Shown here in pieces: positions 1-33,283 of a DNA stretch of 59,824 bases. Numbering within the stretch: position 1 is the first letter of the stretch; each line of letters starts with the position of its first letter. A program made the position numbers and the translations under genes. This stretch comes from Escherichia coli (GTDB lineage: Bacteria > Pseudomonadota > Gammaproteobacteria > Enterobacterales > Enterobacteriaceae): assembly GCF_003334255.1 (NCBI RefSeq), contig NZ_QOWU01000028.1; one strand, written 5' to 3'. A model generated the notes under the pieces. The model did not search any database and was not told the DNA's origin. It saw only the letters and a list, made by a program, of their open reading frames with translations.

Positions 1-106
1 AGCGCGGTGGTCCCACCTGACCCCATGCCGAACTCAGAAGTGAAACGCCGTAGCGCCGATGGTAGTGTGGGGTCTCCCCATGCGAGAGTAGGGAACTGCC
101 AGGCAT
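1..106 (+). rRNA. rrfD: 5S rRNA, 3' 106 nt (5' end lies upstream of the window)
   Basis: Identical to the matching part of the complete 5S copy at 232..351; ends in the canonical ...GGAACTGCCAGGCAT. Confidence 0.95.
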
Positions 107-118
107 CAAATTTAGCGT

Positions 119-194
119 GCTGATATGGCTCAGTTGGTAGAGCGCACCCTTGGTAAGGGTGAGGTCCCCAGTTCGACTCTGGGTATCAGCACCA
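119..194 (+). tRNA. thrV: tRNA-Thr (anticodon GGU)
   Basis: 76-nt sequence GCTGATATGG...TATCAGCACCA with CCA end and GGT anticodon in CTTGGTAAG loop; sits between two 5S genes as in rrnD. Confidence 0.95.
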
Positions 195-231
195 CTTTTT
201 AGGTTAAAGTTCGGCAGATTAGAAAAGAATT

Positions 232-351
232 TGTCTGGCGGCAGTAGCGCGGTGGTCCCACCTGACCCCATGCCGAACTCAGAAGTGAAACGCCGTAGCG
301 CCGATGGTAGTGTGGGGTCTCCCCATGCGAGAGTAGGGAACTGCCAGGCAT
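232..351 (+). rRNA. rrfF: 5S rRNA, complete 120 nt
   Basis: Starts TGTCTGGCGGCAGTAGCGCGGTGG, ends CTGCCAGGCAT; second 5S copy downstream of tRNA-Thr. Confidence 0.95.
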
Positions 352-12145: not shown

Positions 12146-12185
12146 TAAAAAAGGCGCTTCCCCATGCCGAGTAGCGCCTTTTTAA
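12146..12185 (-). terminator. Intrinsic terminator after fis
   Basis: Minus-strand AGGCGCT...AGCGCCT stem followed by a U-run, between the fis stop and the yhdJ start. Confidence 0.6.
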
Positions 12186-27516: not shown

Positions 27517-30500
27517 GTGAGGCGATTGCCGGGGATTTTACTGCTTACTGGAGCCGCGCTCGTTGTGATCGCTGCCCTGCTGGTTAGCGGCCTGCGTATT
27601 GCTTTACCGCATCTTGACGCCTGGCGTCCGGAAATCCTCAACAAAATAGAATCCGCGACTGGCATGCCGGTAGAAGCCAGTCAGCTCTCAGCCAGCTGGC
27701 AGAATTTTGGCCCGACGCTTGAAGCACACGACATCCGTGCAGAACTAAAAGATGGCGGCGAATTTTCGGTTAAACGCGTTACTCTGGCGCTGGATGTCTG
27801 GCAGAGCCTGTTACATATGCGCTGGCAGTTTCGCGACCTCACTTTCTGGCAGCTGCGCTTTCGCACCAACACTCCTATCACCAGCGGTGGTAGTGATGAC
27901 AGTCTGGAAGCCAGTCACATCAGCGATCTGTTTCTTCGTCAATTTGACCATTTCGATCTTCGCGACAGTGAAGTCAGTTTCCTGACGCCATCCGGTCAGC
28001 GCGCCGAGCTGGCGATCCCACAACTCACCTGGCTGAACGATCCACGTCGACACCGTGCGGAAGGCCTGGTAAGCCTCTCCAGCCTTACCGGACAGCACGG
28101 CGTGATGCAGGTGCGCATGGATTTGCGCGATGATGAGGGGTTGTTAAGCAATGGTCGCGTCTGGCTCCAGGCGGATGACATCGACCTGAAGCCGTGGCTC
28201 GGTAAATGGATGCAGGACAATATTGCGCTGGAAACGGCACAGTTCTCCCTTGAAGGCTGGATGACGATCGACAAAGGCGATGTAACCGGCGGTGACGTCT
28301 GGCTGAAACAGGGCGGTGCCAGCTGGTTGGGCGAGAAGCAAACGCATACGCTGTCGGTGGATAATCTGACCGCGCATATTACGCGTGAAAATCCGGGCTG
28401 GCAGTTCTCTATTCCCGATACACGGATCACGATGGACGGCAAACCCTGGCCGAGCGGAGCATTGACGCTGGCCTGGATACCGGAACAGGACGTTGGCGGC
28501 AAAGACAATAAACGCAGTGACGAACTCCGGATTCGCGCCAGTAATCTGGAGCTGGCAGGCCTGGAGGGCATACGCCCGCTGGCCGCGAAACTTTCACCTG
28601 CACTGGGTGATGTTTGGCGCTCCACACAACCGAGCGGCAAGATTAACACTCTGGCGCTGGATATCCCGCTTCAGGCGGCAGACAAGACCCGTTTTCAGGC
28701 ATCGTGGAGCGATCTGGCCTGGAAGCAATGGAAATTATTACCGGGTGCGGAACACTTCTCCGGGACGCTTTCCGGCAGCGTTGAAAATGGTTTGCTTACC
28801 GCGTCGATGAAGCAGGCAAAGATGCCTTACGAAACGGTATTCCGTGCGCCACTAGAAATCGCCGACGGCCAGGCAACTATAAGCTGGCTGAACAATAACA
28901 AAGGTTTCCAGCTGGATGGGCGTAATATTGACGTTAAAGCCAAAGCCGTCCATGCGCGCGGCGGTTTTCGTTACCTGCAACCTGCTAACGATGAACCCTG
29001 GCTGGGTATTCTGGCTGGCATCAGTACCGATGATGGTTCACAAGCCTGGCGCTATTTCCCGGAAAACTTGATGGGTAAAGACCTGGTTGATTACTTAAGT
29101 GGCGCGATTCAGGGCGGTGAAGCGGATAACGCGACGCTGGTTTATGGTGGCAATCCGCAACTCTTCCCCTATAAACACAACGAAGGTCAGTTTGAAGTGC
29201 TGGTGCCGCTGCGCAACGCGAAGTTTGCCTTCCAGCCGGACTGGCCTGCATTAACTAACCTTGATATTGAACTGGACTTTATTAACGACGGTTTATGGAT
29301 GAAAACCGATGGCGTTAATCTGGGCGGCGTGCGCGCGAGTAATCTTACCGCAGTGATCCCTGACTACTCAAAAGAAAAACTGCTGATTGACGCTGACATT
29401 AAAGGTCCGGGTAAAGCCGTTGGCCCTTACTTTGATGAGACACCGCTGAAAGATTCTCTGGGTGCGACCCTGCAAGAACTCCAGCTCGACGGCGATGTGA
29501 ATGCTCGCTTACATCTTGATATCCCGCTGAACGGCGAACTGGTAACCGCGAAAGGTGAAGTGACGCTGCGTAATAACAGTCTGTTTATCAAACCACTCGA
29601 CAGCACCCTGAAAAATTTGAGCGGTAAATTCAGCTTTATCAATAGCGATCTGCAAAGTGAACCACTGACAGCAAGCTGGTTTAATCAGCCGTTGAACGTG
29701 GATTTTTCCACCAAAGAAGGGGCAAAAGCCTACCAGGTAGCGGTAAACCTCAACGGTAACTGGCAACCGGCGAAAACCGGCGTTCTGCCTGAAGCGGTGA
29801 ACGAAGCATTGAGTGGCAGCGTGGCGTGGGATGGTAAAGTGGGCATTGATCTGCCTTATCATGCTGGTGCGACCTATAACATAGAGCTGAACGGCGATCT
29901 AAAGAATGTGAGCAGTCACTTACCTTCACCGTTAGCCAAACCTGCGGGTGAACCACTAGCGGTAAACGTTAAGGTTGATGGCAATCTCAACAGCTTTGAA
30001 TTAACCGGACAGGCTGGTGCGGATAATCATTTCAATAGCCGCTGGTTGCTCGGTCAAAAGCTGACGCTCGATCGTGCTATTTGGGCGGCAGACAGTAAAA
30101 CGCTCCCGCCGTTGCCGGAACAAAGTGGCGTTGAACTCAATATGCCGCCGATGAATGGTGCCGAGTGGCTGGCCCTGTTCCAGAAAGGCGCTGCGGAGAG
30201 TGTCGGTGGTGCAGCGAGTTTCCCACAACACATAACGTTACGTACGCCTATGTTGTCACTGGGAAATCAGCAATGGAATAACCTGAGTATTGTTTCGCAA
30301 CCGACGGCAAATGGCACCCTGGTTGAAGCGCAAGGGCGTGAAATCAACGCCACGCTAGCGATGCGTAATAACGCGCCGTGGCTGGCGAATATCAAATATC
30401 TTTATTACAACCCGAGCGTGGCGAAAACTCGTGGTGATTCAACGCCGTCATCACCTTTCCCGACAACGGAGCGCATTAACTTCCGTGGCTGGCCGGACGC

Positions 30501-31317
30501 CCAAATACGATGCACAGAGTGCTGGTTCTGGGGGCAAAAATTCGGTCGCATTGACAGTGATATCACCATTTCTGGCGATACGTTAACGCTGACCAATGGA
30601 CTGATTGATACTGGTTTCTCGCGGCTTACTGCCGATGGTGAATGGGTTAATAATCCGGGGAATGAACGTACCTCGCTGAAAGGAAAACTGCGCGGGCAGA
30701 AAATTGATGCCGCCGCAGAATTTTTTGGTGTCACGACGCCCATACGCCAGTCGTCATTTAATGTGGATTACGATTTACACTGGCGCAAAGCACCCTGGCA
30801 GCCAGATGAAGCGACGTTGAATGGCATCATTCATACTCAACTGGGTAAAGGCGAAATTACCGAAATCAATACCGGACATGCCGGGCAATTGCTGCGCTTA
30901 TTGAGCGTAGATGCCCTGATGCGTAAGCTGCGTTTTGATTTCAGAGACACTTTTGGCGAAGGGTTCTATTTTGACTCCATTCGCAGCACCGCGTGGATTA
31001 AAGACGGCGTTATGCACACCGACGACACGCTGGTGGATGGCCTGGAGGCGGATATCGCCATGAAAGGGTCGGTAAATCTGGTACGTCGCGACCTGAATAT
31101 GGAAGCGGTTGTCGCACCAGAGATTTCTGCGACGGTGGGCGTGGCTGCGGCTTTTGCGGTTAACCCCATTGTTGGCGCGGCAGTGTTTGCCGCCAGTAAA
31201 GTGCTGGGGCCGCTGTGGAGCAAAGTCTCCATTTTGCGCTATCACATTTCGGGTCCGCTGGACGATCCGCAAATCAACGAAGTGTTGCGCCAACCGCGTA
31301 AAGAAAAAGCGCAATGA
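27517..31317 (+). CDS. yhdP: Large AsmA-like inner-membrane protein
   Basis: 1266-aa ORF with single N-terminal TM helix. Confidence 0.9.
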   Translation: MRRLPGILLLTGAALVVIAALLVSGLRIALPHLDAWRPEILNKIESATGMPVEASQLSASWQNFGPTLEAHDIRAELKDGGEFSVKRVTLALDVWQSLLHMRWQFRDLTFWQLRFRTNTPITSGGSDDSLEASHISDLFLRQFDHFDLRDSEVSFLTPSGQRAELAIPQLTWLNDPRRHRAEGLVSLSSLTGQHGVMQVRMDLRDDEGLLSNGRVWLQADDIDLKPWLGKWMQDNIALETAQFSLEGWMTIDKGDVTGGDVWLKQGGASWLGEKQTHTLSVDNLTAHITRENPGWQFSIPDTRITMDGKPWPSGALTLAWIPEQDVGGKDNKRSDELRIRASNLELAGLEGIRPLAAKLSPALGDVWRSTQPSGKINTLALDIPLQAADKTRFQASWSDLAWKQWKLLPGAEHFSGTLSGSVENGLLTASMKQAKMPYETVFRAPLEIADGQATISWLNNNKGFQLDGRNIDVKAKAVHARGGFRYLQPANDEPWLGILAGISTDDGSQAWRYFPENLMGKDLVDYLSGAIQGGEADNATLVYGGNPQLFPYKHNEGQFEVLVPLRNAKFAFQPDWPALTNLDIELDFINDGLWMKTDGVNLGGVRASNLTAVIPDYSKEKLLIDADIKGPGKAVGPYFDETPLKDSLGATLQELQLDGDVNARLHLDIPLNGELVTAKGEVTLRNNSLFIKPLDSTLKNLSGKFSFINSDLQSEPLTASWFNQPLNVDFSTKEGAKAYQVAVNLNGNWQPAKTGVLPEAVNEALSGSVAWDGKVGIDLPYHAGATYNIELNGDLKNVSSHLPSPLAKPAGEPLAVNVKVDGNLNSFELTGQAGADNHFNSRWLLGQKLTLDRAIWAADSKTLPPLPEQSGVELNMPPMNGAEWLALFQKGAAESVGGAASFPQHITLRTPMLSLGNQQWNNLSIVSQPTANGTLVEAQGREINATLAMRNNAPWLANIKYLYYNPSVAKTRGDSTPSSPFPTTERINFRGWPDAQIRCTECWFWGQKFGRIDSDITISGDTLTLTNGLIDTGFSRLTADGEWVNNPGNERTSLKGKLRGQKIDAAAEFFGVTTPIRQSSFNVDYDLHWRKAPWQPDEATLNGIIHTQLGKGEITEINTGHAGQLLRLLSVDALMRKLRFDFRDTFGEGFYFDSIRSTAWIKDGVMHTDDTLVDGLEADIAMKGSVNLVRRDLNMEAVVAPEISATVGVAAAFAVNPIVGAAVFAASKVLGPLWSKVSILRYHISGPLDDPQINEVLRQPRKEKAQ

Positions 31318-31382
31318 TTTGACGAGGGCGCGTAATTGCCCCAATCTCATAGGATAATCGTTGCCAAAGGCCAACGAGCCAG

Positions 31383-31796
31383 AACATAACCGTAGGTCGG
31401 ATAGGGCGTTCACGCCGCATCCGGCAGCCGTTGCCTGATGCGACGCTGTGCGTCTTATCAGGCCTACAAACGGAACATAACCGTAGGTCGGATAAGGCGT
31501 TTACGCCGCATCCGGCAGCCGTTGCCTGATGCGACGCTGTGCGTCTTATCAGGCCTACAAACGGAACATAACCGTAGGTCGGATAAGGCGTTTACGCCGC
31601 ATCCGGCAGCCGTTGCCTGATGCGACGCTGTGCGTCTTATCAGGCCTACAAACGGAACATAACCGTAGGTCGGATAAGGCGTTTACGCCGCATCCGACAG
31701 CCGTTGCCTGATGCGACGCTGTGCGTCTTATCAGGCCTACAAACCGGAACATAACCGTAGGCTGGATAGGGCGTTCACGCCGCATCCGGCAGCCGT
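31383..31796. repeat. BIME/REP array: about 4.5 tandem copies of a 91-bp unit
   Basis: Unit AACATAACCGTAGGTCGGATAAGGCGTTTACGCCGCATCCGGCAGCCGTTGCCTGATGCGACGCTGTGCGTCTTATCAGGCCTACAAACGG recurs with period 91 at 31383, 31474, 31565, 31656, 31747; the ORF track shows duplicate 60-aa ORFs as a by-product. Confidence 0.9.

Positions 31797-31822: not shown

Positions 31823-33283
<1,461 letters not shown>

Follow-up and report, generated by a model that had tools for sequence, protein, structure and literature searches.

The window (the whole stretch of E. coli DNA analysed here, 59,824 nt) carries a tandem array of REP palindromes between the co-oriented genes yhdP and tldD. The spacer between the two genes is 520 bp long, and the array lies wholly inside it and is extragenic (Table 1). 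Both flanking genes had been named in a first-pass annotation of the sequence, and the ORF list and RefSeq annotation agree with it. Tandem Repeats Finder (TRF) reports a single array, with a period of 91, 4.5 copies, 97% matches, 0% indels and a score of 772. This bears out the roughly 4.5 nearly identical 91-bp units noticed at first; of the span then given, 31383-31796, the array itself and its end stand, while TRF moves the start to 31382. The repeat finder places four in-register copies at a spacing of 91 bp, and unit-by-unit dissection gives 92 for the last spacing, by way of one extra C.

Table 1. Features of the yhdP-tldD region, in positions of the window (strand as assigned; free energies are predictions)
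Feature	Position	Strand	Basis and remarks
yhdP CDS, gene upstream of the array	27517..31317	+	ORF list; RefSeq annotation of identical DNA in E308 and K-12; stop TGA 31315-31317
Promoter-like block, candidate tldD promoter, upstream of the array	31319..31347	+	TTGACG 31319-31324, 17-nt spacer, CAATCT 31342-31347; putative
BIME-2 array, 4.5 units of 91 bp, last full unit 92 bp	31382..31796	.	TRF, repeat finder, unit dissection
Z2-type REP 1	31392..31425	-	Edge variant GCCGGATGCGGCGTGAACGCCCTATCCGACCTAC; unit dissection
Y-type REP 1	31433..31467	+	GCCTGATGCGACGCTGTGCGTCTTATCAGGCCTAC; repeat finder, unit dissection
Z2-type REP 2	31483..31516	-	Internal variant; unit dissection; RNA hairpin -18.2 kcal/mol (+ strand), -15.3 (- strand)
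Y-type REP 2	31524..31558	+	Unit dissection; RNA hairpin -20.2 kcal/mol
Z2-type REP 3	31574..31607	-	Unit dissection
Y-type REP 3	31615..31649	+	Unit dissection
Z2-type REP 4	31665..31698	-	Variant GTCGGATG...; unit dissection
Y-type REP 4	31706..31740	+	Unit dissection
Z2-type REP 5	31757..31790	-	Unit dissection
Rfam RF02564 (naRNA4) matches, four, one per Z2+Y pair	31395-31464, 31486-31555, 31577-31646, 31668-31737	+	Covariance model, full model 1-77
60-aa ORFs, two, one residue apart	31438-31620, 31529-31711		In-register translations of the repeat
tldD CDS, co-oriented gene downstream of the array	31838..33283	+	ORF list, RefSeq; ATG 41 nt past the array end

The array contains nine REP palindromes, with five of the Z2 type on the minus strand alternating with four of the Y type on the plus strand. 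The sequence of the minus-strand Z2 REPs is given by GCCGGATGCGGCGT(A/G)AACGCC(T/C)TATCC(G/A)(A/G)CCTAC, and that of the plus-strand Y REPs by GCCTGATGCGACGCTGTGCGTCTTATCAGGCCTAC. The two inverted palindromes per unit that had been quoted in the first-pass annotation correspond to these two types and are found in every unit: GCCGCATCCGGCAGCCG is the 3' half of the Z2-type REP in plus-strand reading, and GCCTGATGCGACGC...GCGTCTTATCAGGC is the Y-type REP. Neighbouring REPs are joined by a head-to-head linker of 5 nt (GCCGT) or a tail-to-tail linker of 15 nt (AAACGGAACATAACC). All nine have the GTAG/CTAC foot (GTAGG/CCTAC), and a stem mismatch or internal loop is present in every predicted hairpin. 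The single-base variants between copies, also seen at first reading, are resolved by the dissection into ATAGGGCGTTCACGCC in units 1 and 5 and ATAAGGCGTTTACGCC in units 2-4, with unit 4 distinguished by CCGACA and the extra linker C. Units 2 and 3 do not differ from each other, and the K-12 MG1655, DH10B and BL21(DE3) references lack one of the two. The last REP (Z2 REP 5), which is the same in the window, K-12 and E308, is identical to the sole REP of the O157:H7 EC4115 allele. A fuzzy E. coli-type regular expression with a variable loop finds no further REPs elsewhere in the 59.8-kb window; as this expression misses the Citrobacter and Salmonella variants with an extra base (GATGGCG), the zero count refers to E. 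coli-type REPs. The copy of the MG1655 RefSeq record that was inspected contains no REP repeat_region features.

BIME-2 elements are defined by z2 and y REPs in inverse orientation, a short S linker, and tandem copies whose number varies between strains (Ton-Hoang et al., PMC3333891). The array has REPs of both types, its Z2 being one base off the Z2 of REP325 and its Y equal to the Y of REP325 outside the loop, and REP325 has itself been described as Y + Z2 (PMC4550694). The orientations alternate, the linker is of the S kind, the copies are tandem and extragenic, the GTAG foot and stem mismatch are present, and the copy number varies. The array is a textbook BIME-2, ordinary as an element type, and the original REP/BIME assignment is sharpened to this class by the linker, the REP types and the tandem copies. 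BIME-1/RIP/RIB elements (z1 + y) are also inverted REP pairs in extragenic DNA, but they are single-copy and have a long conserved linker with an IHF site, whereas the array is tandem, has a 5-nt linker and lacks an IHF consensus. The IHF site is a feature of the long L linker of single-copy BIME-1 (PMC3333891), and a search of the array for the IHF core consensus WATCAANNNNTTR was empty, the nearest matches in the window being at 12184 and 40530. This rules out the IHF/BIME-1 reading, and the IHF binding put forward in the first-pass annotation is not upheld.

There is also some likeness to REPIN/RAYT systems. A Z2+Y pair of the array can be folded as one REPIN-like hairpin (-43.3 kcal/mol), and all of the REPs retain the GTAG foot and stem mismatch needed by the E. 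coli TnpA_REP (PMC3333891). The difference lies in the mode of growth, which for the array appears to have been local duplication including flanking DNA, as opposed to repeated independent insertion. No tnpA_REP gene flanked by REPs, the arrangement of a REPtron, occurs within the yhdP-tldD spacer. The locus is listed by name, as tldD-yhdP, among the BIME-2 of E. coli K-12 (MG1655/W3110) (Sutormin et al. 2019, PMC6379681); the array at this position is already published, and as a find it adds no new biology.

Unit number across strains and assemblies

The locus was matched in all 5426 of the 5426 complete E. coli genomes of the collection, and these genomes differ from one another by whole units. 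The variation between strains that had been expected, and that was to be checked by comparing unit numbers, is seen as four alleles: 4.5 units with a spacer of 520 bp (the window and E308), 3.5 units with 429 bp (MG1655 and 5CRE51), 2.5 units with 338 bp (ETEC6335), and 0.5 units, i.e., a single REP, with 155 bp (O157:H7 EC4115). Allele frequencies were taken from two systematic samples down the ranked match list, which comprise 96 chromosomes with the top row of each sample excluded. The single-REP allele accounts for 63 of these (∼66%), the 3.5-unit allele for 32 (∼33%) and the 2.5-unit allele for one (∼1%), in a collection of complete genomes that is a non-random sample of the species. These frequencies agree with the 1852 of 5426 genomes that cover at least 80% of the query. 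The 4.5-unit allele is present in 19 of the best 60 ranked records, and hence in at least 19 of the 5426 genomes. With about two thirds of the complete E. coli genomes lacking the array, whatever function it has is dispensable.

The K-12 BIME-2 at tldD-yhdP has the same locus, flanks and units as the array in the window, and the two are base-for-base equal apart from one extra internal unit: K-12 has 3.5 units in a 429-bp spacer, versus 4.5 units in 520 bp here. We consider the chances about even that this extra unit was introduced during assembly and is foreign to the strain itself. The assemblies of the K-12 lab strains Stbl4, XL1-Blue, TOP10 and Origami2, which have neighbouring accessions, are the only ones to match 25 kb of the window without a break or a difference, and other genomes with 100% identity fall short by exactly 91 bp. 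BL21(DE3) has 4.5 units in this same accession series versus 3.5 units in the BL21(DE3) reference, and 3.5 units are found in the DH10B reference, MG1655, C600 and J53. We take TOP10 to be a DH10B-type strain. The examination of long-read assemblies, which had been suggested as a check on the array, turns up a disagreement of one unit between the lab-strain series and the MG1655, DH10B and BL21(DE3) references. An independent gain of the same unit by seven lab strains of two lineages is unlikely, so that a systematic error of assembly has to be taken seriously, and the long-read assembly of P276M is garbled inside the array. Set against this, the 4.5-unit allele is also present, identical or nearly so, in twelve natural isolates outside the lab-strain accession series, long reads have no difficulty in bridging a spacer of 520 bp, and the extra unit is free of errors. 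The array is in this respect a caution for assembly, with unit counts exactly one apart when the same lab strains are assembled independently.

Origin of the unit and gyrase cleavage

Species-representative genomes were scanned with the C-terminus of YhdP, which returned 57 loci. A single Z2 REP, within a spacer of 148-155 bp, occurs in E. albertii, E. whittamii and two other Escherichia species, at the site of the array's last REP (Z2 REP 5). The spacers of other genera range from 56 to 185 bp, and the Citrobacter and Salmonella spacers that were read (L013, L019 and L028) contain REP insertions of their own at other positions. That four further members of Escherichia have just one REP here points to the array as a derived local duplication. 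Direct reading shows that the sequences on either side of the single REP recur in the linkers, the left one (CGGAACATAACC) in the tail-to-tail linker and the right one (GCCGT) in the head-to-head linker. Because the linkers repeat the flanks of the single REP, the 91-bp unit can be understood as a 52-bp native module (flank, Z2, flank) joined to a 39-bp Y module, and we infer that tandem duplication at the site, and not a series of insertions, enlarged the array.

The ancestral state would be a single Z2 REP at the yhdP-tldD site, as in other Escherichia. A Y REP would then, in certain E. coli lineages, have come to be sandwiched between two copies of the Z2 REP with its immediate flanks, and copies of the resulting 91-bp unit may have been gained and lost, through unequal recombination or slippage during replication, to give the alleles of 0.5, 2.5, 3.5 and 4.5 units. 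Since contraction to one REP would regenerate an allele of ancestral appearance, some of the single-REP E. coli could be secondary. In a diverged E. coli lineage (L007), which has a 2.5-unit array, the Z2 stem is changed on both sides, from GGCG/CGCC to GGTG/CACC, and the hairpin is kept.

Of the activities ascribed to such arrays in the first-pass annotation, that of gyrase is documented at tldD-yhdP itself, for the K-12 allele, as cleavage sites in four conditions (PMC6379681). The interval, which is 307 bp in the W3110 reference (Table DS3, PMC6379681), has 35 sites with ciprofloxacin (Cfx), versus 11 for the best other BIME-2 (eco-mqo, 654 bp). The corresponding numbers are 13 versus 7 with rifampicin and ciprofloxacin together, 10 versus 5 with oxolinic acid, and 3 versus 2 with microcin B17 (PMC6379681). 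Summed over all 263 BIME-2 intervals there are 104 Cfx sites, and tldD-yhdP has 35 of the 104, about a third (Table DS3, PMC6379681). The array is, as the 3.5-unit allele, the most heavily gyrase-cleaved BIME-2 of the K-12 chromosome, and gyrase binding and cleavage is the only activity shown here by experiment, for the 3.5-unit allele in a W3110 derivative.

Gyrase prefers y to z2 REPs, and the BIME-2 signal rises when transcription is blocked by rifampicin; BIME-1 intervals are depleted of gyrase sites, with 3 observed versus 9 expected (PMC6379681). In the 3.5-unit K-12 allele, the gyrase signal is independent of transcription, with cuts falling mainly in the Y REPs, and we assume that this activity carries over to 4.5 units. 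REP325 (582 bp) has 0 Cfx sites, and three other arrays of 282-387 bp have 0 each (PMC6379681). Because the REPs of REP325 are near-identical to those of the array but REP325 has no Cfx sites, REP content alone does not explain the gyrase hotspot.

The array might nevertheless be without function for the host, that is, a selfish or neutral repeat whose frequent expansion and contraction is harmless and whose cleavage by gyrase is a by-product of its sequence. Such a view agrees with the restriction of the array to about one third of the complete E. coli genomes, the rest having a single REP, and with the one REP of the four outgroup Escherichia species. It agrees as well with the unrelated REP insertions elsewhere in the Citrobacter and Salmonella spacers, which indicate that the site tolerates REPs, and with a copy number that differs even among assemblies of the same lab strains. 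We nevertheless find it doubtful, though possible: a locus holding one third of the K-12 BIME-2 gyrase sites is unlikely to be without local topological consequence, deletion of REP325 alters the expression of both its neighbours as well as growth (10.64898/2026.03.23.713779), and the L007 hairpin has been preserved by a change on both sides of the stem.

Likeness to REP325 and expression of tldD

REP325 has 5.8 units of 100 bp and is flanked by yjdM and yjdN, two genes of the same orientation. Both it and the array are made up of tandem Z2+Y pairs between co-oriented genes, with Z2 followed by Y in the direction of transcription, and 80 positions per unit are identical, with most of the differences in the linkers; here the yhdP stop (31317), the array and the tldD ATG (31838) follow one another on the plus strand, in the same orientation as in REP325. 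The two arrays differ in unit length (100 versus 91 bp), in copy number (5.8 versus 4.5 in the window), and in the linkers, which in REP325 are 11 rather than 5 nt head-to-head and 17 rather than 15 nt, of other sequence, tail-to-tail. They also differ in the Y loop (CTTGCGC versus CTGTGC here) and in the number of Cfx sites, which is 0 at REP325 and 35 at tldD-yhdP. The matches of Table 1 to Rfam RF02564, a family built on REP325, score 71.1-77.3 bits on the plus strand, above the gathering score of 59.5, and the minus-strand scores of 50.8-55.8 bits are below it. This naRNA4/REP325 match of each unit is absent from the first-pass annotation.

As RNA, the array is predicted to be highly structured. 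Beyond the single Z2 and Y hairpins (Table 1), each Z2+Y pair folds at -43.3 kcal/mol, and the RNA of the whole 520-nt spacer folds at -247.4 kcal/mol, versus -176.6 ± 6.7 for shuffled sequences (z = -10.5). A terminator scan finds no intrinsic terminator in the spacer, and no U tract follows any of the hairpins; the last one is followed on the plus strand by GUAAAAAAUCC, so that the combination of a GC hairpin and a U tract is not present.

According to a 2026 preprint, REP325 stabilises the mRNA of the upstream gene yjdM and brings about a partly Rho-dependent attenuation before yjdN (bioRxiv 10.64898/2026.03.23.713779). Deletion of REP325 raises yjdN (log2FC 3.36), and a ladder of truncated transcripts is reported (10.64898/2026.03.23.713779). 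The effects of REPs are described there as context-dependent, and Rho dependence was not seen with 2-4 hairpins (10.64898/2026.03.23.713779). By analogy with REP325, the yhdP-tldD array would be transcribed as the 3' UTR of yhdP, where its stable hairpins would block 3' exonucleases, with the effect that the yhdP mRNA would be protected, and would partly attenuate read-through into tldD. On this analogy the array probably protects the 3' end of yhdP and dampens read-through into tldD. No experiment on effects of the array on yhdP or tldD mRNA was found in the literature. tldD is well expressed in K-12, with a baseMean of about 6976 (RNA-seq, Harris 2026 supplement), so that the 3.5-unit array is not a tight terminator.

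The array is preceded by the promoter-like block of Table 1, which is part of a conserved segment. Conservation of the first 30 nt past the yhdP stop extends from Escherichia as far as Pantoea and Erwinia; of 56 enterobacterial loci, 50 share TTGACG, the exact 17-nt spacer and CA..CT, whose C, A, C and T are invariant. In the genera without REPs, the tldD ATG follows the end of the block after 33-63 nt, a distance that fits a promoter and short leader, and in E. coli the REPs are inserted between the conserved block and the conserved ribosome-binding region of tldD. If the block were the tldD promoter, the whole array would also be the tldD leader. The 41 nt from the array to the tldD ATG yielded no promoter-like site. 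A sigma-70 scan of the spacer called nothing, with the block below threshold and its -10-like hexamer matching at 2 of 6 positions. A sigma-32-type reading of the same block (TTGACG-N14-CCCCA) was also considered. A conserved hairpin in the block was rejected by eye, as its palindrome is paired in one register in E. coli and in another in Klebsiella.

These features could be read as a stronger version of an RNA-level role, in which the array is mainly a copy-number-dependent regulator, placed between a conserved tldD promoter and tldD and at the same time in the yhdP 3' UTR, and in which unit number sets the expression of the TldD protease by strain. In its favour are the conservation of the block, its distance from the ATG in REP-less genera together with the insertion of the E. 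coli REPs in between, the lack of a promoter-like site in the 41 nt downstream of the array, and the strong lowering by REP325 of its own downstream gene. We regard it as rather unlikely all the same, as the block is poor as a sigma-70 -10 element and escapes the scan, 3.5 units leave tldD well expressed in K-12, and read-through from yhdP may suffice; no data on the tldD transcription start were found in the literature. A still wider proposal combines this regulator with the gyrase results, making the array a fast-evolving copy-number dial between the promoter-like block and tldD as well as the dominant BIME-2 gyrase hotspot, with unit number and linker geometry, not REP sequence, setting both supercoiling and TldD expression. 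This we judge improbable; were it true, changes in unit number would be frequent enough to set stocks of one lab strain apart.

Remaining readings and significance

The RF02564 matches raise the question of whether the units are naRNA4-like nucleoid-associated RNAs that, with HU, condense the chromosome. Four plus-strand matches exceed the gathering score, and the RNAs of REP325 were originally reported to bind HU and to condense nucleoid DNA (PMC4550694). This role is very unlikely here, since it has already been largely refuted for REP325 itself: in the 2026 preprint, deletion or overexpression of REP325 is without effect on nucleoid volume (bioRxiv 10.64898/2026.03.23.713779), and neither a stable ternary complex nor REP-REP contacts in Hi-C are found (10.64898/2026.03.23.713779). 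The preprint shares an author, S. Adhya, with the earlier naRNA/HU work that it contradicts (10.64898/2026.03.23.713779). As the RF02564 model mostly recognises any Z2+Y pair, a match to it indicates sequence class and not function.

Besides the two 60-aa ORFs of Table 1, the array holds a 44-aa copy and a 76-aa ORF on the minus strand, and the RefSeq records inspected annotate no gene in the yhdP-tldD spacer. That the 60-aa and 76-aa ORFs are real small genes can be dismissed almost entirely, even though the array ORFs begin with ATG and are 44-76 aa long, as they are the repeat in translation, duplicated in register with the 91-bp period, missing from the two thirds of strains that have one REP, and never annotated in the records inspected. 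Real small proteins from the 60-aa ORFs were rejected on the grounds of repeat derivation and the 91-bp register, and the initial description of this duplicate pair as artefacts is confirmed.

We hold with considerable confidence that the array is the known BIME-2 of the yhdP-tldD spacer, and that a local duplication origin, gyrase activity and a REP325-like role at the RNA level belong together as one explanation of it. The contrast with REP325 could help to define what turns a BIME-2 into a gyrase site. The natural alleles of 0.5, 2.5, 3.5 and 4.5 units form a ready series in which BIME-2 copy number can be set against supercoiling and the expression of the neighbouring genes.

Unit number of the array in laboratory strains

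The tldD-yhdP BIME-2 array has 4.5 units in all seven laboratory-strain assemblies of neighbouring accessions (TOP10, XL1-Blue, Stbl4, BL21(DE3), BL21-RIPL, Rosetta2 and Origami2; records CP080620, CP081007, CP081009, CP081489, CP083273, CP083274 and CP084529), whereas the reference genomes of MG1655, DH10B and BL21(DE3) have 3.5 units each. Across 25 kb, four of these seven are the only assemblies identical to the window in one piece. The disagreement, which concerns units 2-3, could stem from a systematic assembly artefact or reflect an unusual instability of the array. The assembly of strain P276M (NZ_CP044293.1) is garbled in the second unit and at the start of tldD, with 93.7% identity, and its tldD is annotated as beginning late; the garbling looks like uncorrected consensus errors within the repeat.

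Features of the window and of the loci compared with it
Feature	Location	Strand
Tail of ribosomal RNA operon	window 1-349	+
5S rRNA, 5' truncated	window 1-104	+
tRNA	window 119-191	+
Second 5S rRNA, complete	window 234-349	+
yhdP frame past the stop, to in-frame TAA	window 31315-31335	
Conserved block (TTGACG, exactly 17 nt, CA..CT)	window 31319-31347	
Units 2-3 of the array	window 31473-31654	
REP325	L006 (comparison locus) 706-1285	
Garbled stretch, P276M	L064 (comparison locus) 619-1095	

The window opens with the tail of a ribosomal RNA operon, whose two 5S rRNA genes and tRNA gene lie on the plus strand throughout.

Array sequence and gyrase cleavage

In the K-12 allele of the array, which has 3.5 units, gyrase cleavage under ciprofloxacin was mapped at 35 sites, out of 104 in all BIME-2 intervals together; REP325, the array between yjdM and yjdN, has none (Sutormin et al. 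2019, PMC6379681). The REPs of the two arrays are nearly identical, and their copies are more numerous in REP325; the sequences differ in the linkers, the unit length (91 versus 100 bp) and the Y loop.

E. coli SCPM-O-B-8794 carries a diverged array of 2.5 units at the same site, in a yhdP-tldD spacer of 339 bp. Its units are closer to one another than to the K-12 units, a mutual likeness from which we infer concerted evolution, and its Z2 stem has changed on both sides (GGCG/CGCC to GGTG/CACC) with the hairpin preserved.

The conserved block and REP insertions in the spacer

A block immediately 3' of the yhdP stop is kept in 50 of the 56 enterobacterial loci, Pantoea and Erwinia among them, and the spacer also contains a conserved AATTGCC. 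Judged by its sequence, the block looks like a candidate tldD promoter, with a sigma-32-like CCCCA as a possible alternative -10. Past its TGA stop, the yhdP frame runs for five more codons (TTT GAC GAG GGC GCG) to an in-frame TAA, which falls inside the conserved GTAATTGCC; the conserved block probably yields this extension by chance.

The E. coli array is positioned downstream of the block. Citrobacter youngae, C. koseri and Salmonella enterica subsp. diarizonae have REP or REP-pair insertions of their own in the spacer, at positions that differ from that of the E. coli insertion, each of them lying downstream of the conserved 5' block and upstream of the conserved ribosome-binding region. 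The yhdP-tldD spacer is a place where REPs land repeatedly.
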